DNA of 64,000 nucleotides from a virus, in the IMG/VR virus record IMGVR_UViG_3300045974_000167, positions 1 to 64,000 of that record. One strand, written 5' to 3'. Positions 38 to 62,459 of the stretch are shown here, one piece after another. The notes beneath the pieces were generated by a model. That model did no database searches. It was not told the origin of the DNA and worked only from the letters and a program-made list of their open reading frames with translations. The translations under genes and the position numbers were made by a program. Every line of letters begins with the position of its first letter. Within the stretch, counting starts at the first letter, position 1.

Positions 38-3000
38 GTGTTCGACAGTCTCAAGAAGGTTACCGGTGCCCTTAACGAGCAGTTTGTATTCACTAAGGGC
101 GCGGCTGATGCGGCGAATACAAAGGCTATAGCCGAGGCCGAAACTGCGGCTGCGGCTGAAGCCCAGGCTATCGCCCGTAAAGAGCGGTCCCTCGAAGCCG
201 TTGCATTAAAGAAGAAGGAGATCGAGGCCGAAGTAGAGTTACGTAATGCTGCTCGGGTTTCAGCAGCAAACGCCAACAAGGCAGTCGCCGCCCAAACGGC
301 CACGCCCACCATCGTAGCCTCCCCTATACAGGGCACGCAGGCACCCAACGCTACCGTTGCTGCGGCAGTCCAGGCCAAGGCCGCGCTGACTCTCGCGGAA
401 AAAGAATACGCCGCAGCCGTTGCCGTAGTGACCGAGCAACAGGCATTCGCTGCCGCGATGACTCAGGAACGCATCGCCGCCGAAAAGGCGATGAACGGTG
501 AGCATAAGAATTGGAAGACCAACGAGCTTATCGAAGCTGAGAGAATGGAAGGGATTGCTACCCGCAATCTGACCCGCGACCTACAGGAGCAGGCGCTTGC
601 AAGGGAAGCCCTAGATATTGCCAAGGCTAAGGCCGCTTCGACAACTTCTATGTTGTCGGTAGCTGCTACACCTCCCCCGGCGGTGATTGCGTCCGTAGAA
701 ACTCGCGCCGCGCTCGTACTTGCAGAAAAAGAGTACGCGGAGGCTACCAACCTTAGTAAGATTGCCGTTAATGAACTCAGCGCCGCAGAGGTTGCTAGGG
801 CGTCGGCTCTTGCTGGAACGTTACCCGCCCAGCAGGTAGGGTTAGCCGCCAACGCAACCGCCACTGAGGTTCTTGCCGCTGCGGAAGAAGACCTAGTTCT
901 AGCTAAGGAACAGTCAGTCCTAGCCACTATTGACGAGGCATTAGCGGAGGATAGGCTCCGCGCCTCTCGGCTCTTGGCCGCGACAACTGTGCCTGTTACT
1001 GAGGCGGCTACCGCCGCTAAGGTTGCGGCGGCTGCGGCTGAAGGGGAATACAGCGCAGCCGTACTTCGCACAAATGTAGTCCTGTCGGAACAGGCAGTCG
1101 CTCAGACTGAGGTAGCGGTTGCAACCGGTGCCGCGAAGGCTGCCGCCGATGCTAAGGCGTTAGCTGATGCCAGGGCTGCTGCGGCTGCCGCCGCTGCCGC
1201 TGTAGCTACTACCGCGCAGGGTAAAGCCGCCCTCTTTGCCGCCAACGCCATGAAGGGTCTGTGGGCGTTGATCGGCGGTTGGACCGGCGTAACTATCGCT
1301 GCCGCTGCTGGCCTTTGGTACCTCGCTACTAGGACTACCGAACTAGAGGAAGCTACCAAGAACTTAATCAAGGCCCGTAAGGAACTGAACGACCTTACCG
1401 GTGACCCCCTCGTCCTGGGAGTCAAGACCTTCGATGACGAGGTTAAGAAGCAGCGAGATGTTCTCAAGGGTCTTGAATTCGAGATTGCTGCTAAGAAGGC
1501 TGGTCCCCAGAAAATCGTCACTTCTGAACTCGGTTCGGAAGAGGGCGGAGCTACAGTAACCGCGAACGTAACCGAAAACGAGATTGTCGTCCTTGAGCAG
1601 AAGCGGGATGCTCTTAAGAAGATTGTAGAATTACAGGAGAAAGAAGCACTAGTTCGGCGGGGAATCTCCGAGTCTTACGCCAAAGAAAGTAAGAAGCTGA
1701 CGGATTTAGGGGATGAGTTTTCCCGAAGCCTGAAAGTTTTAACGGACGCTCAGTCCGCGATGGAGCACATCTCCGGGTCTAAGGACAAGCCGTCCGTTAT
1801 GACCCCCAAGGACACCCTACAGAACACGTACGCGGCGTGGGATATAGCTACCCGGCTATACACGGAGCAGCTAAAGAAGGCGAACGGGAATCAGGCAGAG
1901 CTTAAGGCGGCGGTGCAGGAATACACCCGCAATATGGCCTCTGCCACTTCCTCTTATTGGAAGGGCATCGAATCCTACGCAAACATCAGGGATGCCGATA
2001 GACTAACCCTTGGAAAAGTCGCTATCGAATGGAACAAGAAGGAGCTTGATCAGAACCGTAAGGTGTTCGACTCCCTTGAGTTAATTAACAAGAAGACTCG
2101 GGAGTTAGGTAACAGCAAGCTCACGATGTCTGCGGCGGATGTAAAGTATTCCAAGACAATCGAGGACATCGAGACTGAGCGGGTACGGAGGATTGAGGAA
2201 ATCAATCTTCAGCAGCTTAAGAAGGTTCCCTCGGCCACCGACCCCTCCCGCTTTACTGAGGAACTCCGGTATGTCATTGCGGATCCGAAGAAGCGAGCCC
2301 AGGAAACTGACGATCTAACCGCCGCGCTAAACAGGTATGCAGCCGCAGCCGCTCATGCCCGGGACGAGGAGAAGAAGAAGGCGTCCGATGACGCCAAGGA
2401 GAAGCTGGCAGAACTCCGCGCCAAGTATTCACCGGAGGGGTTAGCTACCAAAACCACCGGGGTTACCCAGGTTGAGATTCTCAAGGTTCATGCTGAGATT
2501 GATAAACTTACCAAGATTATCAACGAAAACCTGATCTCTGCCGGGATCAAGGGCACGACCGTCCCGTGGACGATCAAGCTCCTACCCAATACTGAACTCC
2601 CCAAGATCCCTACCCCGATCATCCCCCCGCCGGAAGGCACGTTTGTTCAGCCCGCAGGTGGCGAAATCACGCAGGAAATGCTTGATACCAAGCATGGTCA
2701 GATCCTTGCGGGGCTAAAGACCGAGTTCGATACCAAGGCCGCTGCGAACCTTACTGACAAGGAGCGCAATCGGTTGCAGGACGAGTACCTTGACAAACTT
2801 AGTCAAGAGAACGAGGCGTATCAGCAGGCCACGGCTTCTAGGGAGGCTGTTGACAAGATCAAGCGTTCTACTATCTCGCCTGCCGCCAATGGGACCACGT
2901 ATTCTCTGAATGATCTATCCCGATTCGGGAAGAATGATCCGAATCCGCCCTGGCTAGGGCAGGGAATCACCTCTGAGGCTGAAACCACCCAATCTGCCCG

Positions 3001-6000
3001 GGAGGCCAGGACTGAATTTGATATCAATGTCGCCAAGAAGGCCGAGGAACTAGACGCCGCATCGCGTAAAACCATCGAGGATTTCCTACGCCAGTTCGGA
3101 AAGGCAGAAACCTCCCAGGCCACTACTAAGACCACCCGGCTTCAGGTAGACGCGAAGATTGCTGAGTTCGAGAAGTTACTCTCCGAACGTGCCGCGAAGA
3201 TCAAGGCGGGCGACTTAGGCGCGGGCGCGGTAGATACCACCACGGCTGAATACGAGCAGTGGTTTGCGATAATGATTCAGGGCTTCAAGGACACCGATGC
3301 TGCGGCCGAAAAGCACGCTAGCGCGATGTCCCAGTTTATGATCCAGGCGCAGAGGAACATGGAAACGTTCCTCGCCTCCGAAATCTATAACGTTGTTAGC
3401 AATGAAGCTAGAGATGCGTTGAAGGAGAGGAAAGAAGCGGAGTTTGTCGCCAAGTTGAAGAAGTCCGGGGTTAAAGAGGGGACTGAGCAGTACAACCGCG
3501 CCCTCCTAGAGTGGCAGAAGAACACCAGCTCTGTTTCCCTCGCGTTTGAGAGCATGGCTGAAGCCTTCTCTAAGGCCCTTCAGAAAATGATTGCAGAGTT
3601 GGCCTCCTCTCAGATCCTTGAGGCTTTGACCAAACTCGCCAAGTTAGTAACCACCTCCATAATGAGTGGTTCTGACTCCACACCGGATACCACCGCACCA
3701 GTACCCTCCTCTATCGTCAATTCCGGTAGGGCGGCTACCGGCGGGTTAATCCGTGGGCCGGGGACTTCTACTTCCGATAGTATCCCGATGCTCCTGTCGA
3801 ATGGGGAGTTCGTAATCCAGGCTTCTGCTGTGCAGAAGTACGGCAAGGAATTTTTCGACAAGGTAAACTCTCAGGATCTATCCACGCAGGAGGATCCCGC
3901 CAAGGGCTTCTCCCGCGCCCCACGGGTTCAGCGGCGGGCAGAGGGCGGATTCATCGCGGCCCCCGGTGCAACGATTGCCGCCCCGGTAGTGGTAGAGCAG
4001 CGCCCGTCGTACACGCCGCCCTCCAAGGTAATCGCCAGCGCGGTCACCTCCTCGCTAGAGGCCATCGAACGGTACAACACCCTGTCGTTCGATAAGGTCG
4101 ATAGCTCCACCCATGATGAGTCTCTAAAGACCTTCAGGGAGAAGTACCTGACCTCGGTGAAGAAGGATTCCTCGACCGTATCGTCGGAGGATTCTTCCAA
4201 GACCGCCAAGAGCACCTACGCCCAGGATATTCTCAAGAACTACACCGAGAATGTTCTGAAGAAGTCCAAGGAGGAAGTCTCCTGGGTAGGCAGTAATACC
4301 AATACAGACAGGCGCACGGCTTCCTCCTCTACTACCTCCGATGAGAAGTCTCGTAAGGACGCCCGGGACGTTAAGGTAAGTTCTCTAGAGGAGAGTGCCC
4401 GCCGTTCGACCCGCGTTGATCTCAACGAGAACACCGCTCGCACCGAGAACACGAACTTAACGGAGGTTACCAACAAGGAAGCGCGGGAACTCCGCGAAGA
4501 GATTACCCGCAAGGACGCCCGCGAGGAGGCCCTACGTAACGTCCGCGAGAGTGCCCTACGGACCTCCCGTGACGACTCTGCTAAGACCTCGCGGGAAACC
4601 TCGTCTAAGACCTCGCACGACGATTCTCTTAAGACCTCCCGGGACGATTCGTCCAAGAAACTGCACGAGGAGATCCTGCGGGATTCCGTAGAATCGGCTG
4701 TAAAGACCTCTAAGGAAAGCGCGGAGCGGCTGTCCAAGGATGCTTCTTCTTCGGTGTCCAGCACGGAAACTCGGCGGCGCGACTCCGCTGAACAGGAGAA
4801 GAATTACCTAGAGTCCGTTCGTAGGACCGCCCAGGATACGTCCACCAAGGCTGTCAGCGAAATCTCTACCAAGAAGATCAGCGAGGATACCCTTCGTACC
4901 TCCCAGGAGAAGGCCCTGCGTGCCGCCAAGGATACGGCGGAAAAGGCTTCCTCCGAGACTATCCTGCGGCGCGTCAACGAGGAGAACCTAGTCTCGTACA
5001 CGGAACACGTTCTCCGTAAGTCCTGGGATACGTACTCCAAGCTGTCCAAGTCGGGGGCCGAAAACACCACCCTCGATAGCCTCTCTTCTACGTCTGCGGA
5101 GCAGGTGTTAAAGCAGTTCAGCAATGACCACTCCGAAAACTACGTAGAGAACGTCCTCCGGTCCTACCGTGAGGACTCTGTAAAGAACTACGGGGTTGAC
5201 TCCCTCAAGAACTACAAGGAATCCACCCTGCGGGATTACACTTTCCACGTAGTCCAGAAGTCCTGGGAGGATTACTACCGCCTTGCCAAGAATGATTCGG
5301 TGAAGAACTCCAAGGATACCTCCGTTAACTCCTTCACCGAATATGTTCTCAGCAAGGCCAGCCGGGAAGTTCTACCCGGTGCCGCCGCAGAGAATATCTC
5401 TGTCCGCGTGCCGAACGAGGGCTACGTTATCAAGCCCGAAATCGTGCGTAAGTACGGAGAGGTCTTCCTCAATAAAATCAACTCATGGTCTGCCCCGGTT
5501 CTGCAATCGATTGCAGGAACTCCGGTCAGCACCTTCCTCCGCAGGGCCGAAGGGGGGATGATTCGCGGCCCAGGAACTTCCACCTCTGATAGCATCCCCA
5601 CGCGCCTCCCTGCTGGATCTTACGTCATTAAAGCATCTACTGTTCAGAAGTACGGCGGGGAATTCCTTGAGAGGTTTAACTCCCTAGCCGCCCCTGTCGG
5701 CGTTCAGCGCCGCGCAGACGGCGGGGCGATCTTCGGGCCGGGGACGGGAACCTCTGACAGCATCCCTGCTCTGGTGTCCAACGGGGAATTCATCGTACAG
5801 GCTGCGGCGGTGCAGAAGTACGGTGTCTCGTTCTTCGACAAGTTAAATTCTCAGCAACTAGCACCCACCATTCCTGCGGTACGCAGGTTCTCCGAAGGTG
5901 GTCTCGTTAGTGGTGGCACCCGGGCTCTTTCCGGGTCTGAGGGCGGCGGCGGGGAAACCACCGTCAATGTCATCAATAACACAGGCCAGGAAACGTCCAC

Positions 6001-6145
6001 GGAGAAGATTAAGCAGCCTGACGGATCTGAAATCATCAACATCGTAATCGGTAAGGTCGCCCAGGACATCCGCAACAACGGCATGGTAGGTCAGTCCATT
6101 CAGTCCACCTTCGGGGCCTCTAGGAAGGGCGTTAATCGTGGCTAG
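38..6145 (+). CDS. Tail tape measure protein (probably begins upstream of window)
   Basis: >2000 aa, Ala-rich helical; hydrophobic segment GLWALIGGWTGVTIAAAAGLWYL; C-terminal GGxIxGPGTxTSDSIP motifs typical of TMP C-termini; followed by tail-tip genes. Confidence 0.9.
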   Translation: MFDSLKKVTGALNEQFVFTKGAADAANTKAIAEAETAAAAEAQAIARKERSLEAVALKKKEIEAEVELRNAARVSAANANKAVAAQTATPTIVASPIQGTQAPNATVAAAVQAKAALTLAEKEYAAAVAVVTEQQAFAAAMTQERIAAEKAMNGEHKNWKTNELIEAERMEGIATRNLTRDLQEQALAREALDIAKAKAASTTSMLSVAATPPPAVIASVETRAALVLAEKEYAEATNLSKIAVNELSAAEVARASALAGTLPAQQVGLAANATATEVLAAAEEDLVLAKEQSVLATIDEALAEDRLRASRLLAATTVPVTEAATAAKVAAAAAEGEYSAAVLRTNVVLSEQAVAQTEVAVATGAAKAAADAKALADARAAAAAAAAAVATTAQGKAALFAANAMKGLWALIGGWTGVTIAAAAGLWYLATRTTELEEATKNLIKARKELNDLTGDPLVLGVKTFDDEVKKQRDVLKGLEFEIAAKKAGPQKIVTSELGSEEGGATVTANVTENEIVVLEQKRDALKKIVELQEKEALVRRGISESYAKESKKLTDLGDEFSRSLKVLTDAQSAMEHISGSKDKPSVMTPKDTLQNTYAAWDIATRLYTEQLKKANGNQAELKAAVQEYTRNMASATSSYWKGIESYANIRDADRLTLGKVAIEWNKKELDQNRKVFDSLELINKKTRELGNSKLTMSAADVKYSKTIEDIETERVRRIEEINLQQLKKVPSATDPSRFTEELRYVIADPKKRAQETDDLTAALNRYAAAAAHARDEEKKKASDDAKEKLAELRAKYSPEGLATKTTGVTQVEILKVHAEIDKLTKIINENLISAGIKGTTVPWTIKLLPNTELPKIPTPIIPPPEGTFVQPAGGEITQEMLDTKHGQILAGLKTEFDTKAAANLTDKERNRLQDEYLDKLSQENEAYQQATASREAVDKIKRSTISPAANGTTYSLNDLSRFGKNDPNPPWLGQGITSEAETTQSAREARTEFDINVAKKAEELDAASRKTIEDFLRQFGKAETSQATTKTTRLQVDAKIAEFEKLLSERAAKIKAGDLGAGAVDTTTAEYEQWFAIMIQGFKDTDAAAEKHASAMSQFMIQAQRNMETFLASEIYNVVSNEARDALKERKEAEFVAKLKKSGVKEGTEQYNRALLEWQKNTSSVSLAFESMAEAFSKALQKMIAELASSQILEALTKLAKLVTTSIMSGSDSTPDTTAPVPSSIVNSGRAATGGLIRGPGTSTSDSIPMLLSNGEFVIQASAVQKYGKEFFDKVNSQDLSTQEDPAKGFSRAPRVQRRAEGGFIAAPGATIAAPVVVEQRPSYTPPSKVIASAVTSSLEAIERYNTLSFDKVDSSTHDESLKTFREKYLTSVKKDSSTVSSEDSSKTAKSTYAQDILKNYTENVLKKSKEEVSWVGSNTNTDRRTASSSTTSDEKSRKDARDVKVSSLEESARRSTRVDLNENTARTENTNLTEVTNKEARELREEITRKDAREEALRNVRESALRTSRDDSAKTSRETSSKTSHDDSLKTSRDDSSKKLHEEILRDSVESAVKTSKESAERLSKDASSSVSSTETRRRDSAEQEKNYLESVRRTAQDTSTKAVSEISTKKISEDTLRTSQEKALRAAKDTAEKASSETILRRVNEENLVSYTEHVLRKSWDTYSKLSKSGAENTTLDSLSSTSAEQVLKQFSNDHSENYVENVLRSYREDSVKNYGVDSLKNYKESTLRDYTFHVVQKSWEDYYRLAKNDSVKNSKDTSVNSFTEYVLSKASREVLPGAAAENISVRVPNEGYVIKPEIVRKYGEVFLNKINSWSAPVLQSIAGTPVSTFLRRAEGGMIRGPGTSTSDSIPTRLPAGSYVIKASTVQKYGGEFLERFNSLAAPVGVQRRADGGAIFGPGTGTSDSIPALVSNGEFIVQAAAVQKYGVSFFDKLNSQQLAPTIPAVRRFSEGGLVSGGTRALSGSEGGGGETTVNVINNTGQETSTEKIKQPDGSEIINIVIGKVAQDIRNNGMVGQSIQSTFGASRKGVNRG

Positions 6146-7573: not shown

Positions 7574-8644
7574 GTGGCAACGACCTACCGGATCAAGTAT
7601 CTACAGGCTGTCTTTGAGGAGCGGGGGGATCTAGATACAACCCGGCGTGTATGGTCCGGAGAAGGAAACCCCGCCCTTGAGGCGCTTCCCCGTGAGCAAC
7701 GTCTAAATAAAAATGAGCATGGACTACAATCCCATGCGACTATGCCGGGGCGCGCCCGTTTCGACCCGGACTCCGGGTTTATTCAATCCGGGATTCGCTC
7801 AGTAAAGAAAGACTCGCAGGGTGATTCGGAAATCCCGGTCTGCATGACCTTCACCATGTTTGAGGGACAGCACGAACGCTCCGCTGGTCTAGTGTTTAAT
7901 TTGTCGTGGACTGCTATGGGATTAACCAAGCAGCAATTCCTCGACAATTTAACTGGATCCGTTATTAATTTTTCAATAGCAAGACTCCTCTATAACATTA
8001 TGGCTGGGCCGTACGTCCCGATCACAAAGGGCGGGGTAGAGAAGTGGGCGTTCAAGATTTACGGTGTCGCGGAGGATCAATTTCAGTTCGGCCGTCAACT
8101 AGAAACGGCCGCAGGGTATGAATGGACGTACATGAACCGCTGGTACCCGCGCATCCACCACAAGACGTTCAATAATTATCCTAGCAATAGGGGGTTTGCC
8201 GGGTTGAATGCCCGTAGGTACCAAGCCGATTCCTATTTTTATCATCGTGAGCATACTGTAGCGGCGACTTTCTGGGAGTGGCCTTCTACTGGGACTGCCT
8301 CTCCGCACGCTTCGCAAGGCACCGCCCCGGTCCCCCCGCCGCAGAGTAACGAGCAAGGAGCCCCGCAGCCCTGGAGCACCCCGGATATAACCGCTGTGAT
8401 TCGGGAGATTGTCTCGCGGCCAGGGTTTCTAGATGGAAACCGCCTAGGACTTGTCCTTGGTTTCGATGGATGTTGGGATGATTTAACGACGGCGCGGCTG
8501 TCTGCCGCGAACCCAGGGGGTGGCCCAGGCGGTGGCCCTATGACGTTCGCTTTCGCTGGTGACGCAGATTTCTTCAACGCCGGAACTTGTCAGCCGACGC
8601 TCCAGACATACAACCCGGAACTCAGATTAACGGTGGGTCCGTAA
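7574..8644 (+). CDS. Putative beta-sandwich virion/fibre accessory protein
   Basis: C-terminal 'PDITAVIREIVSRPG...LGLV...PELRLTV' resembles carbohydrate-binding-module-like folds; TAATG coupling to next gene. Confidence 0.55.
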   Translation: MATTYRIKYLQAVFEERGDLDTTRRVWSGEGNPALEALPREQRLNKNEHGLQSHATMPGRARFDPDSGFIQSGIRSVKKDSQGDSEIPVCMTFTMFEGQHERSAGLVFNLSWTAMGLTKQQFLDNLTGSVINFSIARLLYNIMAGPYVPITKGGVEKWAFKIYGVAEDQFQFGRQLETAAGYEWTYMNRWYPRIHHKTFNNYPSNRGFAGLNARRYQADSYFYHREHTVAATFWEWPSTGTASPHASQGTAPVPPPQSNEQGAPQPWSTPDITAVIREIVSRPGFLDGNRLGLVLGFDGCWDDLTTARLSAANPGGGPGGGPMTFAFAGDADFFNAGTCQPTLQTYNPELRLTVGP

Positions 8645-11600
8645 TGGCACCTCGCACAGACTCATTCACCGGGACAACTGGCGCTGCTATCAGCGCCACG
8701 AACTGGTCTGCTGTCTACGGTAGCCTGACGATCCTGACTAACCGGGTACGCGCCTCGGTGGGGAGTTCGGCGGCGCGCTGGAACCCGTCCGACCTAACTT
8801 TTTCACCCGACCAGAAGGCGTCGGCCGCCATGTACGGGGTACCCGTAAATTCAACTGGGTGCGGCCCCGCTGTTCGGATGGGCGCGGACCGCCAGTGTTA
8901 CGCGCTCCTCTCTTACCACTACGACGACGGCGACACGATCACCTACCAGGGGCTCCGACTCTACCGCTTCAATACCAGCGGCGCCGCGGTGGCGCAGCTA
9001 TGGGACTCCGGCGATGTGGGTATCGTGTTCAACGGGGCCGTCGTTTCGGAGCTTGAGATCGTAGGTTCGACGCTGGTCGTCAGGCACGACGGTACCCAAC
9101 TATGGACGGGCACCGACACTACGCTGACTACCGGGCAACCCGGCATCTTCTTTTGGTCTAGCGGCACTGGCTGTATCCTCGACACCTTCTCAGCAGATGA
9201 AGTTGGAGTCGGTGCCGCCGTATACACTGAAACTATTGCAGAGAAGGTTTCTGCCCCGGGGGAAGTTACAGACCGGGCAAATAGGGAATATGAATCACCG
9301 ACCGGGGTAGCTACCTCCGTGGATGTCGTTGCCGATGCGATGGTAGGCAACTTAGCCTTCATCGGGTGTAGCCCCGTCTACAGCGTCACCGGCAACGGGA
9401 CCACTTGGAACCTGCCTGCTGGCACTCAGCCTGGTGACTTGATTCTCCTACTGGGCAAGGGAACTCCGTGGCCCTCTACGGGATGGTCTGCGTTTGGGAG
9501 TTCCTCGGATGACTACTGGAAAATCGCTGGCTCTGAAACTTCGGTGACGGTGATTGCATCCGGCCAAACGTACGGGGTGATCCTGACGTTTAGGTTTACT
9601 GGGCCGATACCCCTTATCGCGTCTGACACAGCGGCGGGCGTGGCGAATGGCGTCAGTCCACGCACTGGGTCCAAGATTCTGGTGGTGTATAAGGCCAACG
9701 GCCTCGCTAACTTGCCAGCCCCCACGCTGGCGGCGGGGGCGTACACGACTCTGCTGGGCGGCGGCGGCACATCCACTGGCTCGGTGTATGTCTTCACCGG
9801 AGCCAACACCACCGTTGCTGGCACTACTGCCAATCAGGGGGTGGCTGTTAGTCCCGGCGCTTGGGGCGGGTTCCAGATCGGAATACAGCCGCTTCCTGTC
9901 ACGGTAGAGGAGGGCGTACAAGAAGGAGCCCAGGCCAAGGATACCGTTGCCGATGTTTTCCACGACATAAACATAGACGAGACCGTATCAGGGGTTGCCC
10001 AGGCCAAAGAAGCACCGCCCTCCGATCCAGAACGGGACCATATCCCCGGCCCGCTGTGGGAAGACATTACCGATGTCGCTACTGCTAAAATAGCAGTTAT
10101 CATGGGTAAGCCGAATACCCAGATTGAGGTGCAGTTTGCCGCATTCGGCGGATCCGACGCCTATTCGGGGCTTGTTAAATCTCGCACGCCAGGTAGTGAC
10201 GGGGTAATTTCTCTCGATAGAGATAAGTACCTGGGCCGCAGGCTCCAGTTAGGTAAAGCTGATCCCGCTGGGACTAACCCTGTAGGGGATCGCGTGATAC
10301 TCCGCGCCGTTAACTCTGCCATCCCCAAGGGCGGGAACGGCCAAGTTGGCAGGGCCACCCTCATCCTCACCCCTGCAACTGTCTGGACGTTTGATGACTC
10401 GCAGGCTGTGGCTGGCCCCATCTGCAAAGTCCACGGATCTCAGTTAAATCCCCAGTCTGTATCCCCTGCGACCGCACTAGCGGAGACTCTTACTGGGGAT
10501 TACGGCACGATTGCCATGCAGTCGGCCTGGGCGGTTAACGACCCGTACATCACGAAGGTCGCGCCAGGGCAGACCACGAATGTCGGACCTACTTGGTTGA
10601 TGGGTGGTCGCGGGCAGCAGACGCACACCAAGGCCCGCCCGCAGAATCCTTGGGAAATTGATGTAACTTCGCTGGTTAATGCCCGTATAACGGCGGCGCA
10701 GGACACCAGTATTTGTCTAGACTTCTCCCCGTCTGGGAGGACTGACCTAAAGACCGTCTGCGAGTTTTACGGCTCCCTGTACCCGGAACTTGCACCCCGG
10801 CTAGAAATTGACCCGTTCGGTGCCAGTAACATCGACATTGTAGGGATAGATTCCGGCACCCCCCGTATGACCGTGACCGTCCCTGTTGGCGGCACGTTGG
10901 CTTCAATCGAATGGGGTTACGATACTACCTACAGCGGGGGGTACGTCACCGGGCCTTCCAAGGTCGATGTGTGGCCCACGGATAACCCATACGATTTCTC
11001 CATGTTGGAGACTTCTGCCAGGGTCTATGTCCGCGTAACTCTGGCCTACGGGGAGGGCGACGACCGCAAGGTGGAATTGCTTAGGCAGTTCGCCACTCCC
11101 AAGGTGTTCCGGCCCGCGCTTACGAAGCTCGCTAGCTACCCAGCAGCTATGCGGCCCCGAGCCCCCATAACTTTGCAATCAAGTGCAGCGGGGGAATCCT
11201 GCTTCTGGGTACAGGACTTCTCCACCACCTGGATTGCATTCAAAGGGTTTACTACCGCCCCTATCTGTATTGATGAGAACGCTGGGACATGGAGTAACGC
11301 ATTCGACCCAGAGGCACTCGCCACTACTGCTACGGGTCCAGCCGGGGCGACTATCTCCGATGTTGGAGCCGCGTACTATGATCACACCTCCGGGGCGTAC
11401 TACCTACCAATAGTCACCCTTAGGGGAGGGCTGTTCGATGTTTCTTACGTACTAGCTCCTACGCATTTCTCTACATCGTGGAATATCTGGGACATGCAGT
11501 TTGTGCGCCCCGATATTAACGGTGGCGGGTACGTCCAGTCCATCAACGGAATCAACTCGGCGGGGGCGATCAACGGTAACAGCCTCGCCATGGGCCGCGT

Positions 11601-14600
11601 AGAGGATTGGCGCACTAACGGAGACCATGACTATTTGTACCCGTTGTTCCTCACACTCAACGTCCAGGGGCGGCTGCGGGTGCTGTCCACTATGGCGTAT
11701 GCCGCTGGGGGGTTCAGCCATTACGTGGTTGCCCCAACCGGATGGACGTTGGAGATCGGGCCGGTCGGAAGCGGCGCTAGACTGGAAGTGGATTTCGATG
11801 CCGACGCAGGAGTAACCCTTCTCAACACGCTGACGCGGGACAGGGTTCCCAGGCTAGTTGTTGCTGCGAGGGCATCTAGCGGCAACTGTTTTATCGCAAC
11901 CCGCACCGGGGATGTCATCACTACCCCCGTCAATGGGTCCGACCATGTTAGGACTCCCGGGACTTGGACTTCGCGTAGCGTGCCCAACTTCCAGAACGCC
12001 TACGTGACCAACCCGATGCCAGCACTCAACGGCATCGTAGACGTTCCCGATGGGGAGAGCACCAACATTGTTCTGCTCCGGTCCTCTGCCCCCACGGTAG
12101 AGTTCCTGCGGGCAGACACCCTTGCGGCTTGTAGGGCTGACGCCCGTGTCTCGCAGAATAGTTTCACAAGTCACGCCGGGACTGCTGAGATGGTTTCGGC
12201 CAACCCGACTCCATGGGGGACATACGGTGGAGCGGCTAACACCCTAACCGGAGGGCTCCAGTGGTATGACGGTCGGATCGTGGATGACCTGCCGACCGCG
12301 TTTTCGGCCCTGATGCAGCATCCTCACGGCGGCGCGACTGGGTTCCGGGTTTCCGGTGGAAATCTATACGCCCAGCGGTACTATGATCGGCTAAGGCTCT
12401 CCCCTGAGACCGCTGCTGCTGTTTCATCTGGGTCTAATATCCTGCCCTGTAACAAGGCGTGGGAGGGTCTCCCGATGGCTGTACTGGTCGGGAATGACAC
12501 TACTGGGTACGATATTTTCACGGCAACGTCTGCCATGGATATCTCCCGTTTGGACGCGCCCACCCGCGACCTCGCGGGGCGCTACACCACGGGGGCGTTG
12601 GAGATCGGAACGAACGTCGTTGCCCAGGACGATTCTGGTCTGCGCGGGCTTCGCAAGGGGCACGGGTACAACACCTTCTATGCGACTTGGCAGTGGGACG
12701 AGGACTCGATCAACGGCGACCACAACGGTCTGATGAACCACGCCGGAACCGGGAAGCTGAAGATCCTCGGCGGCAAGGGGCAGACCGCACGCATCCACAT
12801 CCTCAACACTTCGCTCGGCGGCGGGGCTTGGATCAATGAAGAGTTCTATCCCTATGGTTATTTCCCGCAAGGTGGGTACAACGGCTCGCCCGAATTAATT
12901 GGCGGGCTTGAGTACCCGATGATTCGGGTTCACGTATGGTTCATCTCGCAGGACGGCGGATTTACCTTTGAGCCGGTTCTAGGAACCCAATGGATCCCCT
13001 GCGGGGAAAGTTTCGGGGGCGAGGTAATACTCAATCTTCCCGTATTACAATCTGATAATGTATGGATTACGCATGAAATCCCCAATGATCTAGAGACTTG
13101 GCAACTGAAGGTTACGGAGTGGCGGGCGCGGTCTGCTAATTCTGGGGACACGGCTTACGGGCTTGTGCATAACGTAGCCTCCAACGGGGATTTGATGTAT
13201 CTGGGGGCTAATTCCGCCAAGTTAAGTTTAACCGCATCAGATAGCGAGCTTCTTCCAAGCAACCGCCCGATGCGGGTTTGGGATCCTACGGAGCCGGGTA
13301 ACTTAACTGGTGTTGGGTGCGACTCATGGAAGGGTCTATTACTAGAGGATACGACCACATTAGAGGGTCGAGTATCCAAGTGCCTAATAATCAACTACGG
13401 TGACGAGGACTCCTCCGAGCAGACAGCGGGCCGGAACATGCTGCACGCAATCGATTTCCTACTGGGCGGATCCGCACGAGCAAAAGCTCTATTAAGGAAG
13501 TTCTCGTTCCTATATATCCCCGTCGCGGCGCAGGCCGAGGTTAAATACGGTCGCGCCCGTTATCATTGGGACGCCACCGACAACGGGGACGGGACGTTCC
13601 AGCCCGCGATGCCTGGATCCCTCACGCCGAACGGCACCGCCAAGTACCCGTGGGGTAACTGGGGGAAGGTATTTAGCAGGTTATTGCTAGCTCTATATGA
13701 TCAGTGGGCAGAACATTACCCGGCTACTGCAACGCTCACCAAAGATCAGACGAACTGTGTCTTTTCACTCTGCACTTATCATTGCGATACTCATAACAGA
13801 TACACGCCGCAGCCAGCCCCACTTGTTCCTCCGTTCGTGAACCTGGCTTTCCCAGGAAAAACACCGCAGGAATCGCTCGACCTCTATAAGCAGAGGTTCC
13901 TCGTCACAGCATGGAGGGAGCATGTCGCCAATCAGGAGGCGACCGGTTATGTAGCTCCACTTCAATCGGGCGCTGCCAGCATTCCTCATGGCGGAACGTC
14001 GTTCCTCTATGAGACCTTCTGGAACGCTCCTCTGGCCAAAGTAACTGTGTGGCCAGGGGATGACATCATGCAGAACTTTGCCAAGGCCCATCTAGATGGT
14101 ATCTCCATGGCGGGTGCGGCATTCGATGTATACGACGAAACAATGGAGGACGCTGGTTGGGGGAAGGATACCGTCTATGATACCCGCGTCCAGAATGCAA
14201 TTGCAGCAGAGGCCGTAGAGGCAAAGGGTGTTGTTACCGATAAGGTAACGGGGACTGAGATTCCCGCTGAACGTGTAATTGCTCCCGACGCCAGCGTTAC
14301 GCAGATGCAGGCCGCAGAAGTAGCTGCACAAGCGGCTAAGGCGGGGGATCAGGCACTTGGCGGATTCCTACAGTCCGATGTTGTTACGGGCGCTGCTAAG
14401 GCCGGGGATGTAAGCGACGACCACAAGGCATTCACGGAGGCGGGTACTGGTGGTGCCCAGGCCGGGGATACTTCTACTTCCGGTAGGGTTGCCACCGAAG
14501 CCCAGGCAGGCGCGGCGCAGGCCCCCGGGGCGGTTGCTGATGGAGTTGTTCCCGGGGCCGGTCCCACGATTATTACTGAAACCGTTACCGGGGTGGCTGC

Positions 14601-22234: not shown

Positions 22235-22286
22235 GCCCATAAGTAACTGACTGCGATCAATTGCAGGAAAATACCCCCCCGGGGGG

Positions 22287-35721: not shown

Positions 35722-35736
35722 TCTGCAATCAATTGC

Positions 35737-45575: not shown

Positions 45576-45594
45576 GTGCAACTGATTGCAGGAT

Positions 45595-50612: not shown

Positions 50613-52092
50613 CAGATTCCTAGTGGTTCCAACCATCGGACTCTGGAAATCACTCGCCACCGATAGCTCGTTCGTCTTTATGATGAACACAGTTCGGAGG
50701 CTCATAGCACGAGGTAACTATGCCTACGTCGTCCTCCCCCGTGACATCGACATGGAGAACGTGCCCAAGATTCCAGGGGTCATGTACTTTGTATGCGACG
50801 TACCTGCGAGGGCGCTCGACACGCAGATGGGAATCGTGGATCAAGCATTCATTTCAAACACCTTCGGGTTCCAGTACGGAAAGTACGTGGTTGACGCTGG
50901 GATTGTTCTGCACGGCTCTCAGGTACTACCACTCAAGGCCGCCGTCCATCCTAGAGGGCCTTTTGACTGTTTTCCTGTCTTTTGTCTTGAGCAGGGTGTT
51001 AGTTGGATTGATACTGCTCCTGGGTACGAGCCTGGAAGATATGATGAAGAACTGATGATCCTGGGGGCCTCGTATTCCTACCTCTGCTGCGTATCCAAAA
51101 AAGACCTAGGGAGTTCTCTAGAAAAGGCCCGCCACTTCAACCTTAGCCATCAACAGTTCAACATTCTTAGGGAAAATGCCTTCGCGGGTGCGGCCCCTGT
51201 AGACGTACCCCTTATGCAATCGATTGCAGCGGAGACCAAGAAGAACGACACCACCACCCTGCTCTACGCCGCCAGAACAAACAAGACCAAACACCCTGAA
51301 GATATCGTCGAAATCTTCGATGCCCTATACAAACAGAATGAGCCCATCAACATTACTTACGTCACTCAGACTTCACCTCTCAAGTTTGATGTCATCACTA
51401 AGAGGCGTCATCTCTTTGATGAGCGTGGATATATTGAGCCCCGTACGAGTTGCGGCCCGATGGATTTCTACAAAGAAGCCGCCAAATCCCACGTTTACCT
51501 CTGCTGGTCGGATAGCGAGAGCTTCAATGCCTCTGCTGTTGAGGCTTCTCTTCTGGGTTGCGTGTATATGTGTCACGACACTAAGCCTCATCGTGATCTA
51601 TATGATGGTGATCTGGGTGGGGACGTATTTTGGCTCCGCGACAAGGTGGACGCCATAGAGAAAGTGCGCTGGGTCATCCACCACTACGAAGAAGCTTACA
51701 AGATGCAGGCTCCCCTGCGGCAGAAATTCCTCGACCGCCAGATCGAAGGCGACCTCTCCAAGCACATCCATGAGAAAACCATCGAGTTTCATCGAGCTAA
51801 CGTCAAAGGGACGCCCGGTAAGCTTTATTACTATAAGCTTGCGGAAAGTGCAGAACTTACGAAAATTATCGATGGTTGTCTGTCGAATTGGGCAGATGAA
51901 ACTATCGGCCTTGAGGATGTTCTTGTTTCCTTAGAATCCCACGGCGACGCCTTCTCGACAGACAACCTATATCGAGCCATTTCACGAGTGATGCCGGTGA
52001 ACTGGAACTTGCATCAAATGATGAAGCTGCACTATAACCTCCTCGACACCTGCGACAGCCGGTACCCCCGGTATAGGATCAAGAATGACTGA
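50605..52092 (+). CDS. GT-B glycosyltransferase (GT4-like)
   Basis: C-terminal 'S.SESFNASAVEA..LG' (E-x7-E); 'YAAR.NKTK' donor-binding motif. Confidence 0.75.
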   Translation: MSNRFLVVPTIGLWKSLATDSSFVFMMNTVRRLIARGNYAYVVLPRDIDMENVPKIPGVMYFVCDVPARALDTQMGIVDQAFISNTFGFQYGKYVVDAGIVLHGSQVLPLKAAVHPRGPFDCFPVFCLEQGVSWIDTAPGYEPGRYDEELMILGASYSYLCCVSKKDLGSSLEKARHFNLSHQQFNILRENAFAGAAPVDVPLMQSIAAETKKNDTTTLLYAARTNKTKHPEDIVEIFDALYKQNEPINITYVTQTSPLKFDVITKRRHLFDERGYIEPRTSCGPMDFYKEAAKSHVYLCWSDSESFNASAVEASLLGCVYMCHDTKPHRDLYDGDLGGDVFWLRDKVDAIEKVRWVIHHYEEAYKMQAPLRQKFLDRQIEGDLSKHIHEKTIEFHRANVKGTPGKLYYYKLAESAELTKIIDGCLSNWADETIGLEDVLVSLESHGDAFSTDNLYRAISRVMPVNWNLHQMMKLHYNLLDTCDSRYPRYRIKND

Positions 52093-52816
52093 GCCTCTGA
52101 ACAAAGAGAATGTGATGCGGGTGCCCATCGATTCCATCGAGCCGAACGATTGGAATCCTAACCAGATGCCCTCCCACCTGTTCAACGAGCTATCCCACGA
52201 CATCGAAGAGGAGGGGATGGATCAGCCGGTAGTCGTGATTGAACGCGACGGCAAACGCATCATCGTTGACGGCGAGCACCGTTACAGGGCCTCCAAAGCT
52301 GCCGGAAGAACGGACATCCTGATCTCTGTCCGCGACTACTCGGACGACGAGGCGAAAATCCGGACAGTACGTAGAAACATGATTCACGGCACGACTGACC
52401 CCGCCAAGTTCACGAAACTCGTCATGGACTTGAACAATCGCGGCCTGCCTATCGATGAGATTAAGCGGCGCATGGCTACCCCTGACAAGGAATTTATGAA
52501 GATGTACCAGGGGAACACCGCCGACAAATCCAAGAAAGCAGCCGAAGTCATTGCTGATGCTGAGAAGGGGGTTGCCCAGACCTTCCTCGTCGTCAACTTG
52601 TCCCAGATGATCAGGGATATCGTTGCCAAGTTCGGGGAAACCATCCAGCAGGGGTTCATCGCCTTCTCCTACAAGGGACAGACTCACATGCTGATTTCGA
52701 TGGACCCCAAACTCCACAAGGCTATGGTTGCCTTCAAATCGGCGGCGGAAGAGGATAAACTGACTCAGGAACAAATCTCTGAGCGTCTAGCTAATGCTCT
52801 GATGAAGGCGTCGTAA
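52085..52816 (+). CDS. ParB/Srx-domain protein
   Basis: 'PNDWNPN', 'QPVVV', 'IVDGEHRY'. Confidence 0.88.
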   Translation: MTEPLNKENVMRVPIDSIEPNDWNPNQMPSHLFNELSHDIEEEGMDQPVVVIERDGKRIIVDGEHRYRASKAAGRTDILISVRDYSDDEAKIRTVRRNMIHGTTDPAKFTKLVMDLNNRGLPIDEIKRRMATPDKEFMKMYQGNTADKSKKAAEVIADAEKGVAQTFLVVNLSQMIRDIVAKFGETIQQGFIAFSYKGQTHMLISMDPKLHKAMVAFKSAAEEDKLTQEQISERLANALMKAS

Positions 52817-55994: not shown

Positions 55995-56003
55995 TGCAAT
56001 CAA

Positions 56004-56468
56004 TTGCACGGAGGGCGTGTGGGAGTAACCTTAAGAACACAAAAATCTGAACGTCCGGTTGAGAGCCTGACGTTAGATGAAGCGATTGCTGAAAGGCAAC
56101 GCTTAGTTAAAACTACGATGGACGCGCAGGATGAACTCAGCGACCGAAATCGTATCGGAACCGATGGAAAAAGGATCTCTGCCCACGACTACTGGGCGTG
56201 GCACCGTACTGTATCGAAGGTAGTCCGCGACAATCAACACCGCATGGGTTTACTGCGTGAACACATCAGAAAGATGCGGCAGCGTTCGTCTGTCGCAGAG
56301 GCCAAGGTTGAGGACGTAACTGATCGGGGCCTACTCAAATCAGCATACGAACTGCTCTGCACGCTTGCTAGAGAAGATGTTGATTTTGATGCTCACGAAC
56401 AGGCTCTCATGGACGTTATCCGAGAACGCATCCAGGGAACCTCACCAGTTAATGGAGGTCGTAAATGA
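56004..56468 (+). CDS. Hypothetical coiled-coil protein (start may be GTG 56019)
   Basis: Gene string. Confidence 0.65.
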   Translation: MHGGRVGVTLRTQKSERPVESLTLDEAIAERQRLVKTTMDAQDELSDRNRIGTDGKRISAHDYWAWHRTVSKVVRDNQHRMGLLREHIRKMRQRSSVAEAKVEDVTDRGLLKSAYELLCTLAREDVDFDAHEQALMDVIRERIQGTSPVNGGRK

Positions 56469-58520: not shown

Positions 58521-58535
58521 CTGCAACTGATTGCA

Positions 58536-59440: not shown

Positions 59441-59838
59441 TGAACCTAGGATTCACCGGTACCCGTGAAGGGATGAGCCAACGGCAGAAACTTGCCCTTG
59501 GGGAACTCCTTGACGGTAGATACAGTATGAACATCGGTGACTTCCATCACGGGGACTGTCAAGGCGCGGATACCCAGGCGCACTTGATTGCAAAATCCCG
59601 GGGATGGAACATCATCATCCACCCGCCCGACCAGACCTACGCCAGAGCATACAACACAGGGTTCTCCTCCATTCGTATGCCCATGCCGTTCCTGGCTAGA
59701 AACCACAACATTGTCGATGAATGTAGTGCATTAATCGCGGCCCCGCGAACCGAGAAGGAAGAGTTAAGAAGTGGTACATGGGCCACCATCCGCTATGCTT
59801 GGAAACAGGGCAAGACCGTCGTAATCCTCAACCCGTAG
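59440..59838 (+). CDS. SLOG-superfamily (DprA/YspA-like) protein
   Basis: GFTGTR, HGDC.GAD, RN..IV, SGTW.T..YA. Confidence 0.75.
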   Translation: MNLGFTGTREGMSQRQKLALGELLDGRYSMNIGDFHHGDCQGADTQAHLIAKSRGWNIIIHPPDQTYARAYNTGFSSIRMPMPFLARNHNIVDECSALIAAPRTEKEELRSGTWATIRYAWKQGKTVVILNP

Positions 59839-61255: not shown

Positions 61256-61261
61256 GGACTT

Positions 61262-62071: not shown

Positions 62072-62076
62072 CTCAC

Positions 62077-62158
62077 GGTGTCCTGGCGGAAATGGTAGAC
62101 GCGCTAGCCTTAGGAGCTAGTGCCGAAAGGCGTGAGGGTTCGATTCCCTCGGACACTA
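62077..62158 (+). tRNA. tRNA-Leu(UAG)
   Basis: Cloverleaf, CTAGC-CT-TAG-GA-GCTAG, long variable arm, GTTCGA. Confidence 0.92.
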
Positions 62159-62164
62159 CTTCAC

Positions 62165-62246
62165 GGGACTGTGGCGAAACTGGTAGACGCATGGGACTTA
62201 AAATCCCCCGCCGAAAGGCATCCCGGTTCGATTCCGGGCAGTCCTA
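62165..62246 (+). tRNA. tRNA-Leu(UAA)
   Basis: Cloverleaf, anticodon TAA, long variable arm. Confidence 0.9.
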
Positions 62247-62250
62247 TCTT

Positions 62251-62326
62251 GCCTCCATAGCTCAGTTGGTAGAGCAGCGGGCTTTTAACCCGTTGGTCGT
62301 AGGTTCAAATCCTACTGGGGGTACCA
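62251..62326 (+). tRNA. tRNA-Lys(UUU)
   Basis: Cloverleaf, anticodon TTT, encoded CCA. Confidence 0.93.
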
Positions 62327-62332
62327 TTTTTC

Positions 62333-62407
62333 AGTCCCTTAGCTCAGAGGTAGAGCGAGGCCCTTACAAGGCTTAGGTCGTCGGTTCGATCCCGACAGGG
62401 GCTACCA
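62333..62407 (+). tRNA. tRNA-Val(UAC)
   Basis: Cloverleaf, anticodon TAC, encoded CCA. Confidence 0.92.
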
Positions 62408-62459
62408 GTTGCAATCGATTGCAGATGTAGGTTAATAGTAGTCAAACCGGTGAGAACAT

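Follow-up and report, generated by a model that had tools for sequence, protein, structure and literature searches.

A conserved genome-wide array of palindromic sites in a pond phage and its relatives, with a ParB/KorB-like phage protein as candidate binder

The genome of a pond phage was found to carry a 14-base mirror-symmetric word every ~2-3 kb along its entire length, within genes as well as between them. These copies are genuine and ancient, lie under selection at even intervals, and occur together with the protein family of ORF 44104-44889. On balance, sequence comparison and structure modelling favour the copies being high-affinity sites bound by a homodimeric DNA-binding protein of the phage, most probably the product of that ORF.

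Distribution of the sites

The window analysed comprises positions 1-64,000 of a viral contig of 83,559 bp (~83.6 kb), and all positions refer to it. It holds six exact copies of TGCAATCGATTGCA and, at up to two mismatches, 26 copies, against 0.21 expected from dinucleotide shuffles (largest count, 2); two more listed copies, at 37743 and 59579, have three mismatches. The motif runs on to the end of the contig, with 43 copies at up to two arm mismatches, or 45 at up to three mismatches over the whole word. A sequence logo gave the true motif as TGCAA(T/C)-YR-ATTGCA with uninformative flanks. The initial annotation had described a lattice of copies without conserved flanks, and each coordinate it listed was found to hold the sequence it gave.

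The copies within genes begin in a tape-measure-like ORF (2-6145), with CGCAATCGGTTGCA (2765-2778, two mismatches) and an exact copy (5502-5515), and continue through virion genes: TGCAATCAAGTGCA (11174-11187) in the ORF of a 2176-aa virion protein, CGCAAACGATTGCA (14639-14652) in ORF 8587-15117, TGCAACTGATTGCA (16018-16031) in the central tail fibre J-like ORF, and GGCAATCGATTGCA (20165-20178) in the tail fibre ORF 18778-21690, the stop of which follows a further TGCAACTGATTGCA (21650-21663) by 27 nt. Next come TGCATTTGATTGCA (22485-22498, ORF 22321-22683), TGCAATCAATTGCA (26656-26669, ORF 26264-27844), TGCAATCGATTGCG in an AAA-ATPase ORF (29792-29805) and TGCAATCGAGTGCA close to the 3' end of a replication-initiator-like ORF (31559-31572). 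Exact copies lie in the SF2 helicase ORF (38042-38055), a Cas4-like exonuclease ORF (42200-42213) and ORF 50524-52092 (51215-51228), and other copies are TGAAATCGGTTGCA in ORF 39579-40049 (39619-39632), TGCAACTGATTGCA in a RuvC-like ORF (42873-42886), one in a DNA methyltransferase ORF (47318-47331) and TGCAATCGGTTGCA in ORF 47754-48500 (48269-48282). CGCACTTGATTGCA, with its three mismatches, is at 59579-59592.

Of the 28 copies in the window, about 8-9 lie between genes, as had been claimed. TGCGATCAATTGCA (22252-22265) is followed by a G/C hairpin, an exact copy (24756-24769) directly past ORF 24250-24750 is effectively intergenic, and TGCACTTGATTGCA (34577-34590) lies between inverted GGGGAG/CTCCCC arms with a T-rich tail. 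One copy ends at the primase start codon (35724-35737), and TGCACCTGATTGCA (37743-37756) is upstream of the SF2 helicase gene. Another (45577-45590) stands 1 nt past a stop and 5 nt ahead of a promoter-like TTGACA-17-TAATCT, one (55995-56008) is past a TAG and upstream of ORF 56004/56465, and one (58522-58535) is 1 nt past a stop and is followed by a terminator-like hairpin. An exact copy (62410-62423) lies 3 nt past tRNA-Val, upstream of the tmRNA. The initial annotation had placed the intergenic copies at transcription junctions, which held in part: some lie against terminator-like hairpins or beside a tRNA, and -35-like boxes coincide in part with three weaker copies, but no general promoter geometry was found, and a promoter reading is unsupported. 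Several seeming gene starts at copies are merely the TTG within ATTGCA. Essentially all genes are on one strand, so that every copy is transcribed.

The density of copies was about threefold higher outside long ORFs than inside (0.78/kb vs. 0.25/kb). The lattice is nevertheless no by-product of coding, because ORFs of at least 80 aa hold 17 copies (up to one arm mismatch), while 300 synonymous-codon shuffles averaged 0.83 copies and never exceeded 3; comparison with such shuffles was a test that the initial annotation had named as able to refute its claim, and it did not. The intragenic copies are read in two frames, again as proposed (nine LQSIA-type, six AIDC-type). Spacing, for which a check of regularity had been suggested, was more even than chance in the source contig (CV 0.57 vs. 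null 0.95, P = 0.0006), and the CV was 0.46 in phage DLP5, 0.62 in the relative G002 and 0.40 in the relative G001.

Conservation in related phages

The motif is also present in distant relatives, namely DLP5, DLP3, SIO-2, RcZahn and many IMG/VR contigs, and the group that carries the lattice includes cultured phages of Stenotrophomonas, Vibrio and Rhodobacter. Since one word is common to all of these, a phage-encoded reader is favoured. Between DLP5 and DLP3, 33 of 34 aligned sites are kept, and the arms have evolved about 10 times more slowly than their surroundings, with 6/408 substitutions (1.5%) against 428/2638 (16.2%) in the flanks of ±40 nt, while the centre flips between CA and TG. 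Within source genes that can be aligned to DLP5 (44-47% protein identity), two of five sites occupy the exactly homologous base, those at 38042 and 42873 corresponding to 42199 and 46689 in DLP5, and a third, at 31559, is 9 nt off. The conservation that had been predicted for relatives is thus borne out, and the copies behave as selected sites of a dimeric protein: palindromic, with a YR centre, under strong purifying selection and kept in relatives.

A sister clade encodes a diverged ORF 44104 homologue, present in 3/3 complete genomes, and carries a shifted word, TGCAAC-NN-GTTGCA, in 28-47 copies. One member, the circular Rhizobium plasmid-prophage p7, has 41 copies. Both p7 and DLP5 persist as plasmids.

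The candidate binding protein

ORF 44104 (44104-44889, + strand) encodes a 261-aa protein of phrog_17202, without a Pfam domain, for which a ParB/KorB-like DNA-binding fold is predicted. In its AF2 model (pLDDT 80), residues ~42-166 matched the ParB DBD-parS complex 6s6h (Z 8.1, rmsd 5.2, 128 aa), Spo0J 1vz0 (Z 7.8, rmsd 3.6, 102 aa) and the KorB DBD-operator complex 1r71 (Z 7.0, rmsd 3.9, 106/114 aa), with SopB, VirB and P1 ParB as further structural matches, and Foldseek linked it to ParB and Noc DBDs, including the DBD-NBS complex 6y93, at probabilities of 0.75-0.92. Such matches (Z 7-8) are middling for a helical domain, the Rubisco chaperone that topped the VIA matches is unrelated, and at sequence level no solved protein, KorB included, was matched. 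A homodimer is predicted: the model scored 0.77, against 0.00 for the best of three controls, with at least 89% contact agreement between runs and a partner pLDDT of at least 75. Of proteins with solved structures, 20/30 that form pairs of one chain and 1/23 that are single chains attain that mark.

Among genomes picked on the DNA word rather than on the protein, a homologue was present in 6/6 lattice genomes of at least 95% completeness (five at 100%), and in none of four complete single-hit controls or eight single-hit records. G002 (99% complete), which was found through the protein, has both lattice and homologue. ORF 44104 is the most conserved protein in common with DLP5 (60%), and two blocks, RKAxYL and GW(S/T)K, do not vary even where the homologues share 23-25% identity. 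Because most lattice genomes are relatives, the co-occurrence would be shared equally by any core gene of the replication/recombination module, such as DnaB, the SF2 helicase, UvsX, ORF 36811 and ORF 39579; ORF 44104 sits within this module and travels with it. No copy lies directly upstream of ORF 44104 in the source contig, and there is therefore no sign of autoregulation here. The DNA of relatives is heavily modified (PMC5834331, PMC7326821), and a reader of the word would have to cope with this. Of the binders named by the initial annotation, ORF 44104 stands as the best candidate on fold, predicted dimer and co-occurrence, while the MerR-like regulator (39131-39577, + strand) is not detectably common to all lattice genomes.

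Alternative explanations

It is possible, although unlikely, that the sites are instead parS/OB-like loading sites for ORF 52085 (52085-52816, + strand), which would clamp and slide to cover the genome, with ORF 44104 accessory or unrelated. This 243-aa protein has a ParB_N domain (Pfam, 3.6e-13) and the start of an HTH, and its model, ParB/Noc/KorB-like in the N-terminal half, was matched to ParB, Noc and KorB over 125-139 columns, a stretch longer than just the N-terminal domain (Foldseek E 1e-8 to 2e-7; KorB 8qa9, rmsd 3.2). CTPase ParBs carry GERRxRA, whereas its nucleotide-binding motif is GEHRWRA. ParB_N proteins occurred in 5/5 complete lattice genomes tested, in G021 directly downstream of the ORF 44104 homologue, but also in 1/5 lattice-free control phages, and phages commonly carry them for other functions. 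The spacing of 2-3 kb would fit clamp sliding over ~1-1.5 kb, as shown for KorB (PMC11790492). However, orthologues of ORF 52085 are poorly conserved or undetectable by BLAST despite the invariant word (28% in DLP5, none in G002 or G021). ORF 52085 may itself be the binder or may share that role.

It is improbable that the word serves not as a structural binding site but as the target of a DNA-acting phage enzyme, such as a site-specific nickase/endonuclease or a site-specific modification enzyme. Regular interruptions are known in other phages, for example T5, and the source phage encodes a DNA methyltransferase (47155-47757), but this is absent as a shared gene from the other lattice genomes. 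A DNA ligase is encoded by the relatives, and most restriction enzymes fail to cut their DNA. Nevertheless, no enzyme was found to co-vary with the word, the switch between T-type and C-type words follows the ORF 44104 family, and a palindrome would have both strands cut or nicked; nicking is not supported. It is also improbable that the copies are recombination hot spots or module boundaries for the adjacent UvsX, resolvase and exonuclease genes, shaping mosaic exchange between co-infecting phages. The location of ORF 44104 in the recombination/replication module would suit this, and a copy lay no more than 50 nt from 4 of 42 DLP5/DLP3 homology breakpoints, with 1.6 expected, but the enrichment is not significant (P = 0.07), the median distance equals the null, and conserved positions inside conserved genes are unlike the behaviour of boundaries. 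Least probable of all is action in RNA (a 5-bp stem and tetraloop in co-directional transcripts), or as a host LacI/GalR-type operator as the initial annotation had entertained, even with the one-strand gene layout and the match of CG-centred copies to TGnAAnCGnTTnCA. No compensatory changes were seen, one arm decaying while the other stays intact and the decayed side varying among genomes; the contig has no LacI HTH; and the relatives, whose hosts span alpha- and gamma-proteobacteria, have CA, TG or TA rather than CG at a centre that flips between DLP5 and DLP3. These readings are largely refuted.

Comparison with known systems

No published description of such an arrangement was found, but the likening of the lattice to stoperators and ParB-family site arrays in the initial annotation was apt. 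Among the closest systems is KorB/OB of the IncP plasmid RK2 (PMC11790492; PDB 1r71), with a palindrome of similar length dispersed on a mobile replicon and a dimeric ParB-family DBD as reader, here predicted. The ORF 44104 model aligns to the KorB DBD, and in both cases some sites adjoin promoters and others are far off. The OB sites of RK2 number about a dozen and all fall between genes, whereas the present sites number 40-50, are mostly intragenic and are evenly spaced. For sliding and locking, KorB requires KorA as well as its own CTPase N-terminal domain; ORF 44104 lacks a domain of this kind and is not similar to KorB in sequence.

Stoperators of Cluster A mycobacteriophages, temperate phages, are two to three dozen 13-14-bp sites across early and late operons, many in very short intergenic gaps, at which a phage-encoded reader (the L5 gp71 repressor) silences the whole genome. 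They are asymmetric, monomer-bound and oriented with transcription, unlike the present palindrome with its predicted dimeric reader, inconsistent orientation bias between genomes and mostly intragenic copies. The nucleoid-occlusion arrays Noc/NBS and SlmA/SBS comprise dozens of dispersed, dimer-read 12-14-bp palindromes, and Noc is a ParB paralogue, its DBD complex being among the fold matches above; these arrays, however, belong to cellular chromosomes, avoid one region and are tied to cell division, a role to which nothing here points. The four sites of plasmid-prophage N15 are scattered over its genome and not clustered. They are inverted-repeat centromere sites (IR1-4) for SopB, a ParB-family protein, and the bound complex can silence nearby promoters (PMC7205306). 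The difference is one of number, four against 40-50, and of the reader, as SopB is a complete ParB that includes the N-terminal domain and works with ParA, and no ParA was identified here. Cluster O mycobacteriophages have 17-bp dyad repeats, TGTTCGG-NNN-CCGAACA, with no reported function and no proposed binder (PMC4351075). They resemble the present sites in that a single short word of dyad symmetry recurs more than 30 times genome-wide, with invariant arms, a variable centre, mixed intergenic and intragenic copies and no consistent orientation, but the two have no relation in sequence, host phylum or phage lineage, and the Cluster O repeats are not known to be evenly spaced or to be conserved across genera and within genes.

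Proposed mechanism and role

If the ORF 44104 product is the reader, it would act as a homodimer with a ParB/KorB-type helix-turn-helix DNA-binding domain and a C-terminal dimerisation region, each monomer reading one TGCAA(T/C) arm, while the central pyrimidine-purine step would be free in sequence but retained for its flexibility. The ParB N-terminal CTPase domain is the driver of spreading, and none was found in ORF 44104; with no known spreading route, coating of the genome is therefore unexplained. Selection holds about one site per 2-3 kb across the entire genome, placed in tiny intergenic gaps if possible and otherwise written into coding sequence in any permissive frame. The bound array would mark or organise the whole phage chromosome, and on the preferred reading its role would be the genome-wide organisation, silencing or partition of a phage genome that can persist as an episomal plasmid.

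Distribution of the palindrome

The initial annotation described a 14-bp palindrome dispersed over the window, and all of its copy coordinates proved correct on re-check. The exact word, TGCAATCGATTGCA, occurred six times in the window and not at all in 100 dinucleotide shuffles; with up to two mismatches there were 26 copies, against an expectation of 0.21 and a maximum of 2 in the shuffles. The source contig, an IMG/VR viral sequence of 83,559 bp from a pond metagenome (estimated completeness about 87%), of which the window is the first 64 kb, carried 43 copies with up to two arm mismatches, or 45 with up to three mismatches over the whole word, and these reached the contig end. Alignment of the copies gave the logo TGCAA(T/C)-YR-ATTGCA, and the flanks outside the 14 bp were nearly free of information. 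Essentially all genes of the contig lie on the plus strand. The stretch was found in only two pond-metagenome DNA runs, both as assembled contigs, with no RNA runs listed alongside, and neither megablast nor tblastn with ORF 26264 returned a near-identical phage record.

Coding sequence does not account for the copies. ORFs of at least 80 aa held 17 (up to one arm mismatch), compared with a mean of 0.83 and a maximum of 3 in 300 shuffles in which synonymous codons were permuted within each gene, so that the comparison proposed in the initial annotation as a way to refute the lattice fails to do so. Intragenic copies were read in two different frames, as had been claimed. Copy density was about 3-fold higher outside long ORFs (0.78/kb) than inside (0.25/kb), and several intergenic copies occupied very short gaps or adjoined other signals, lying 1-2 nt past a stop codon, 3 nt past tRNA-Val, or beside terminator-like hairpins. 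The lattice ran without distinction through structural, lysis, replication and accessory regions. A suggested test of spacing regularity also came out positively: gaps between copies on our contig were more even than those of random points (CV 0.57 vs 0.95, P=0.0006), the largest being no more than 5.7 kb, and spacing was likewise more even than random elsewhere, with CVs of 0.46 (Stenotrophomonas phage DLP5), 0.62 and 0.40 (IMG/VR genomes G002 and G001).

The weaker arm of the palindrome was mostly the left in our contig (14:4) and G002 (14:5), mostly the right in DLP5 (1:6) and its relative DLP3 (2:8), and balanced in the IMG/VR genome G021; the bias is one seen within a genome, and its direction varies from lineage to lineage.

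Conservation in related phages

DLP5 and DLP3 belong to the genus Delepquintavirus. Our phage has only about 20 genes in common with them, at protein identities of 25-60%; these come chiefly from the replication/recombination module, along with the large terminase gene. The word occurs 35 times in DLP5, with the consensus TGCAATCAATTGCA, and takes a TGCARTTAAYTGCA flavour in G002, where the marker protein is 39% identical. It is also present in Vibrio phage SIO-2, Rhodobacter phage RcZahn, and the complete 184-kb phage G008. That word-bearing phages infect both alpha- and gamma-proteobacteria argues against a host-specific reader.

DLP5 and DLP3 share 83% DNA identity, and 33 of 34 aligned sites are kept between them. 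Their twelve arm positions showed 6 substitutions in 408 (1.5%), four of the six falling in one weak site, compared with 428 in 2638 (16.2%) in the 40 nt on each side, and the central dinucleotide varied freely (TG to CG, CA to TG, TA to CA). Five of our own sites lie in coding sequence alignable with DLP5. Those at 38042, in an SF2 helicase gene, and 42873, in a RuvC-like gene, fall at the exactly homologous nucleotide in DLP5, and the site at 31559 is 9 nt from its counterpart in the alignment. As the proteins of these genes are only 44-47% identical, single sites must be old and individually maintained. Conservation in relatives, on which the initial annotation had made its proposal depend in part, is thus borne out, and the lattice is a real, strongly selected feature.

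A candidate reader, ORF 44104

Both the palindromic form and the flexible YR step kept at its centre suggest that the reader is a symmetric dimer. Three candidate binders had been named from the sequence: ORF 44104, the ParB_N protein ORF 52085, and the MerR-like regulator ORF 39131 (39131-39577). Predicted fold, predicted dimer and co-occurrence favour ORF 44104. ORF 39131 is not favoured, since BLAST found a homologue only in DLP5 and G002, though this counts for little, as small proteins are quick to diverge.

ORF 44104 (44104-44889; 261 aa, phrog_17202) lies in the replication/recombination module and, of all proteins shared with DLP5, is the best conserved (60%), its homologues being gp066 in DLP5 and gp062 in DLP3; the distribution of its homologues coincides exactly with the word-carrying phage groups. 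For a test of co-occurrence, as the initial annotation had advised, genomes were picked by the DNA word alone in exact-match IMG/VR scans, and the homologue was sought afterwards. It was present in 6/6 lattice genomes at least 95% complete (G008, G013, G019, G021 and G028, 100% complete; G037, 95%), and absent from four complete genomes with a single, chance-level word match and from all eight records with a single match. Six lattice-bearing records without the homologue are fragments, 43-66% complete. G002 (99% complete) has both lattice and homologue and was left out of the count because it had been found through the protein. The genomes are related, and six genes (DnaB, ORF 36811, the SF2 helicase, ORF 39579, UvsX and ORF 44104) occur in all lattice genomes examined, so the co-occurrence narrows the field and singles out no gene. 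ORF 44104, the sole structure-modelled protein among the six, has a predicted sequence-specific DNA-binding fold; ORF 39579, which is small, has a conserved beta-beta-alpha-like C-terminal block and no obvious HTH.

An AlphaFold2 model of ORF 44104 from 36 homologues (mean pLDDT 80) has residues 1-28 disordered, followed directly by a helical DNA-binding domain. In VIA comparisons, residues ~42-166 matched the ParB DNA-binding domain-parS complex 6s6h (Z 8.1, rmsd 5.2, 128 aa), Spo0J 1vz0 (Z 7.8, rmsd 3.6, 102 aa), the KorB DNA-binding domain-operator complex 1r71 (Z 7.0, rmsd 3.9, 106/114 aa) and KorB 8qa8 (Z 6.2), with SopB, VirB and P1 ParB at Z 4.4-4.9. These matches are consistent in family, yet their Z-scores lie where chance matches of helical domains are possible, and the top-ranked match was an unrelated Rubisco chaperone. 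Foldseek matched ParB and Noc DNA-binding domains at a probability of 0.75-0.92, but with E about 1, and a 36-homologue profile gave no ParB-family match to PDB sequences at E<=10. Given the middling Z-scores, the chaperone in first place and the lack of a sequence match, the ParB-type HTH fold is only suggestive.

Against a best value of 0.00 among three controls, the homodimer model scored 0.77, a mark reached by 20/30 proteins solved as same-chain pairs and by 1/23 solved as single chains. Contact agreement between runs was at least 89%, with partner pLDDT of at least 75. The predicted interface involves the N-terminal helices and the C-terminal domain, and the invariant blocks RKAxYL (98-103) and GW(S/T)K (124-127) lie mostly outside it. 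The logo and the predicted dimer together agree with the ParB-family trait of a dimer on a 14-16-bp palindrome. No ParB_N (Srx-like) CTP-binding domain was found in ORF 44104 (no Pfam match at all at E<=0.01) or in six longer homologues (none at E<=0.05), and by sequence and domain content the protein is placed outside the ParB family. By analogy, its mode of action may be that of a ParB-family protein's DNA-binding half, and it is a plausible candidate for the lattice binder.

The longer homologues (400-550 aa), such as RcZahn gp66 (segment L019, 19485-20699) and that of G021 (segment L151, 9528-11060), have low-complexity N-terminal extensions rich in Ala, Glu, Lys and Pro. These contain a short helical segment (e.g. 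..TIPELDALVKEHGIEVPE..) resembling SAP/HeH-type motifs, for which Pfam gave no match.

A second word and a diverged homologue

Only one plasmid record carried an ORF 44104 homologue (32% identity): a circular replicon of 109 kb from Rhizobium bangladeshense, packed with phage genes. The T-type word (TGCAAT..ATTGCA) is absent from it, and in its place are 41 copies of a C-type word, TGCAAC-NN-GTTGCA (e.g. TGCAACGCGTTGCA). C-type lattices of 28-47 copies were also found in IMG/VR genomes G038-G042, and the homologue in 3/3 of those that are complete. RKAxYL and GWSK are kept in homologues of both types, and the TV(T/S)EL block of T-type proteins (V152 in ours) becomes TRDEL in 4/4 C-type proteins. 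A Val-to-Arg change alongside one from T:A to C:G, at position 6 of the arm, would be chemically sensible; because the two types are two clades, the link between this residue and the word is a prediction, not evidence. KorB is said, in work of Khare et al. in 2004, to read its operator via residues that lie beyond the HTH, one of them an Arg close to the corresponding region. The Rhizobium plasmid is an independent demonstration that a plasmid lifestyle is open to phages of this group, as reported for DLP5 (PMC5834331).

Alternative explanations

The other ParB-like protein, ORF 52085 (52085-52816; gp114 in DLP5), could itself be the reader, although this seems unlikely. It has a ParB_N domain (PF02195 at 3.6e-13), and its model matched ParB, Noc and KorB in Foldseek (E 1e-8 to 2e-7, 125-139 columns) over the N-terminal domain and the start of the HTH, i.e., with ParB_N followed by HTH. 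ParB_N proteins occurred in 5/5 complete lattice genomes tested, adjoining the ORF 44104 homologue in G021, but also in 1/5 lattice-free controls, and orthologues of ORF 52085 are poorly conserved among genomes in which the word is invariant. The canonical ParB CTP-binding motif is GERRxRA; ORF 52085 has GEHRWRA (alignment consensus DGEHRWRA), with H replacing the first R. It may instead act as a partner, providing a clamp, or have no connection with the lattice. The LacI/GalR-type operator or host LacI-family factor raised by the initial annotation was discarded: hosts are broad, a search of the contig for the LacI HTH (PF00356) found nothing at E<=1, and rather than a set CG the centre in relatives is CA/TG (DLP5), TA (G002 and IMG/VR genome G024) or, across the C-type clade, whatever dinucleotide occurs.

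Recognition by a nicking or modification enzyme is improbable; relatives carry heavily modified DNA and a ligase gene, but no enzyme tracks the word. An RNA hairpin was rejected since compensatory changes were absent and orientation flips between genomes, and an Rfam scan at gathering thresholds found only tRNAs and one tmRNA. As to a general role as promoters, only 0-1 of the 27-35 copies per genome had a -10-like hexamer at the proper spacing (16-18 bp), and in four genomes such hexamers were no commoner near copies than at background TTGCA words; a promoter-consensus scan of the last 19.6 kb of the contig found fewer promoter-like sites than in shuffles. Nor do the sites seem to mark recombination boundaries, as breakpoints between DLP5 and DLP3 were not significantly near them (P=0.07 within 50 nt; P=0.16 for median distance).

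A function of the array over the whole chromosome, whether organisation/condensation, roadblock-type or KorB-like silencing, or episome partition, is favoured tentatively, at rather less than an even chance, and among these silencing or organisation ranks ahead of partition. Such a function fits the even spacing over all regions, the preference for tiny intergenic gaps, and the plasmid lifestyle of relatives.

Other features of the contig

Beyond the window, at contig positions 72000-79000 (segment L017, 8000-15000), motif copies are denser and share longer flanks (CCCCAAA..TC-[motif]-GAACGGCGTGTTAC, within a 66-nt repeat, D14). This stretch also has AAGAAAGG-type repeats, rich in purines, together with non-coding gaps of unusual length (up to 577 nt), and may be an origin or control region. 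At 64647-66256, likewise outside the window, three weaker copies lie within a 46-nt repeat; in it, a 17-nt spacer separates the right arm, TTGCA(A/C), from a downstream TATTGT or TAACGT. These three (contig 64.6-66.3 kb) are the only copies to fit TTGCAA-17-TATTGT, and look like a small, sigma-70-like early promoter family whose -35 box overlaps the palindrome.

An extended ribosome-binding context, CCATGGAGG or AATGGAGT, precedes many start codons window-wide (e.g. 45640; contig 65150 and 67595); AATGGAGT occurs 10 times on the plus strand and never on the minus, and the DLP5 counterpart, CAATGGAGTGA, 13 times. A full-length tmRNA was identified at 63294-63653 (+; Rfam RF00023, 107.6 bits, model 1-374 of 374), for which ARAGORN made no call, and just upstream, at 62077-62407, are four tRNA genes (Leu-tag, Leu-taa, Lys-ttt and Val-tac). 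A DNA methyltransferase gene at 47155-47757 (+; phrog_359, 9.6e-50) contains a motif copy at 47318 and, among the genomes compared, is common only to SIO-2. Two giant ORFs lie on the plus strand, one at 2-6145 (2047 aa or more, being truncated at the start of the contig), with a C-terminus resembling the tape-measure proteins of DLP5 and SIO-2, and one at 8587-15117, specifying a 2176-aa virion structural protein; the rest of the tail module is unrelated to that of DLP5.

Relation to known systems and significance

Among the nearest mechanistic relatives are the stoperators of Cluster A mycobacteriophages. Stoperators are asymmetric with a fixed orientation to transcription, whereas the lattice site is palindromic, with a centre that switches orientation from DLP5 to DLP3; the contig yielded no immunity repressor. 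Close in mechanism, too, are KorB-OB on RK2 (PMC11790492) and the IR1-4 SopB centromere sites of the plasmid-prophage N15 (PMC7205306). The nearest descriptive precedent comes from Cluster O mycobacteriophages, whose 17-bp dyad repeat is unexplained (PMC4351075). Compared with all four systems, as far as they are described, the lattice differs in copy number and regular spacing, in the intragenic majority of its sites, in positional conservation across genera, and in a candidate reader without a clamp domain. Searches with three 14-mers did not find the word in a phage context in the literature covered, and the motif is missing from the papers on DLP5, DLP3 and RcZahn. A description of the lattice was not found; it is of the dispersed-operator or ParB-site kind, and a new variant thereof.

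One specific mechanism is possible, if doubtful: that a ParB-like protein which lost, or never had, the CTPase clamp organises or silences the entire ~100-kb episomal phage chromosome via 40-50 regularly spaced palindromes, many in coding sequence and held in position across genera, its T- or C-type specificity switched by the Val-to-Arg change from TV(T/S)EL to TRDEL. If true, viruses would possess a hitherto undescribed way of marking a whole genome. One small protein reading 40-50 evenly spaced sites would control or organise a whole chromosome, and its sites would impose constraints on coding in dozens of genes. The group, whose cultured and tractable members include phage-therapy candidates against Stenotrophomonas maltophilia (DLP3 and DLP5) as well as marine Vibrio phages, offers a natural test system for the upkeep of DNA-binding arrays against coding constraints, for ParB-type domains without a CTP clamp, and for the silencing or partition of episomal phages. 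In metagenomes, the motif offers a sharp sequence marker by which group members can be recognised, and the sites and the gene for their binder matter for engineering these temperate phages for therapy.
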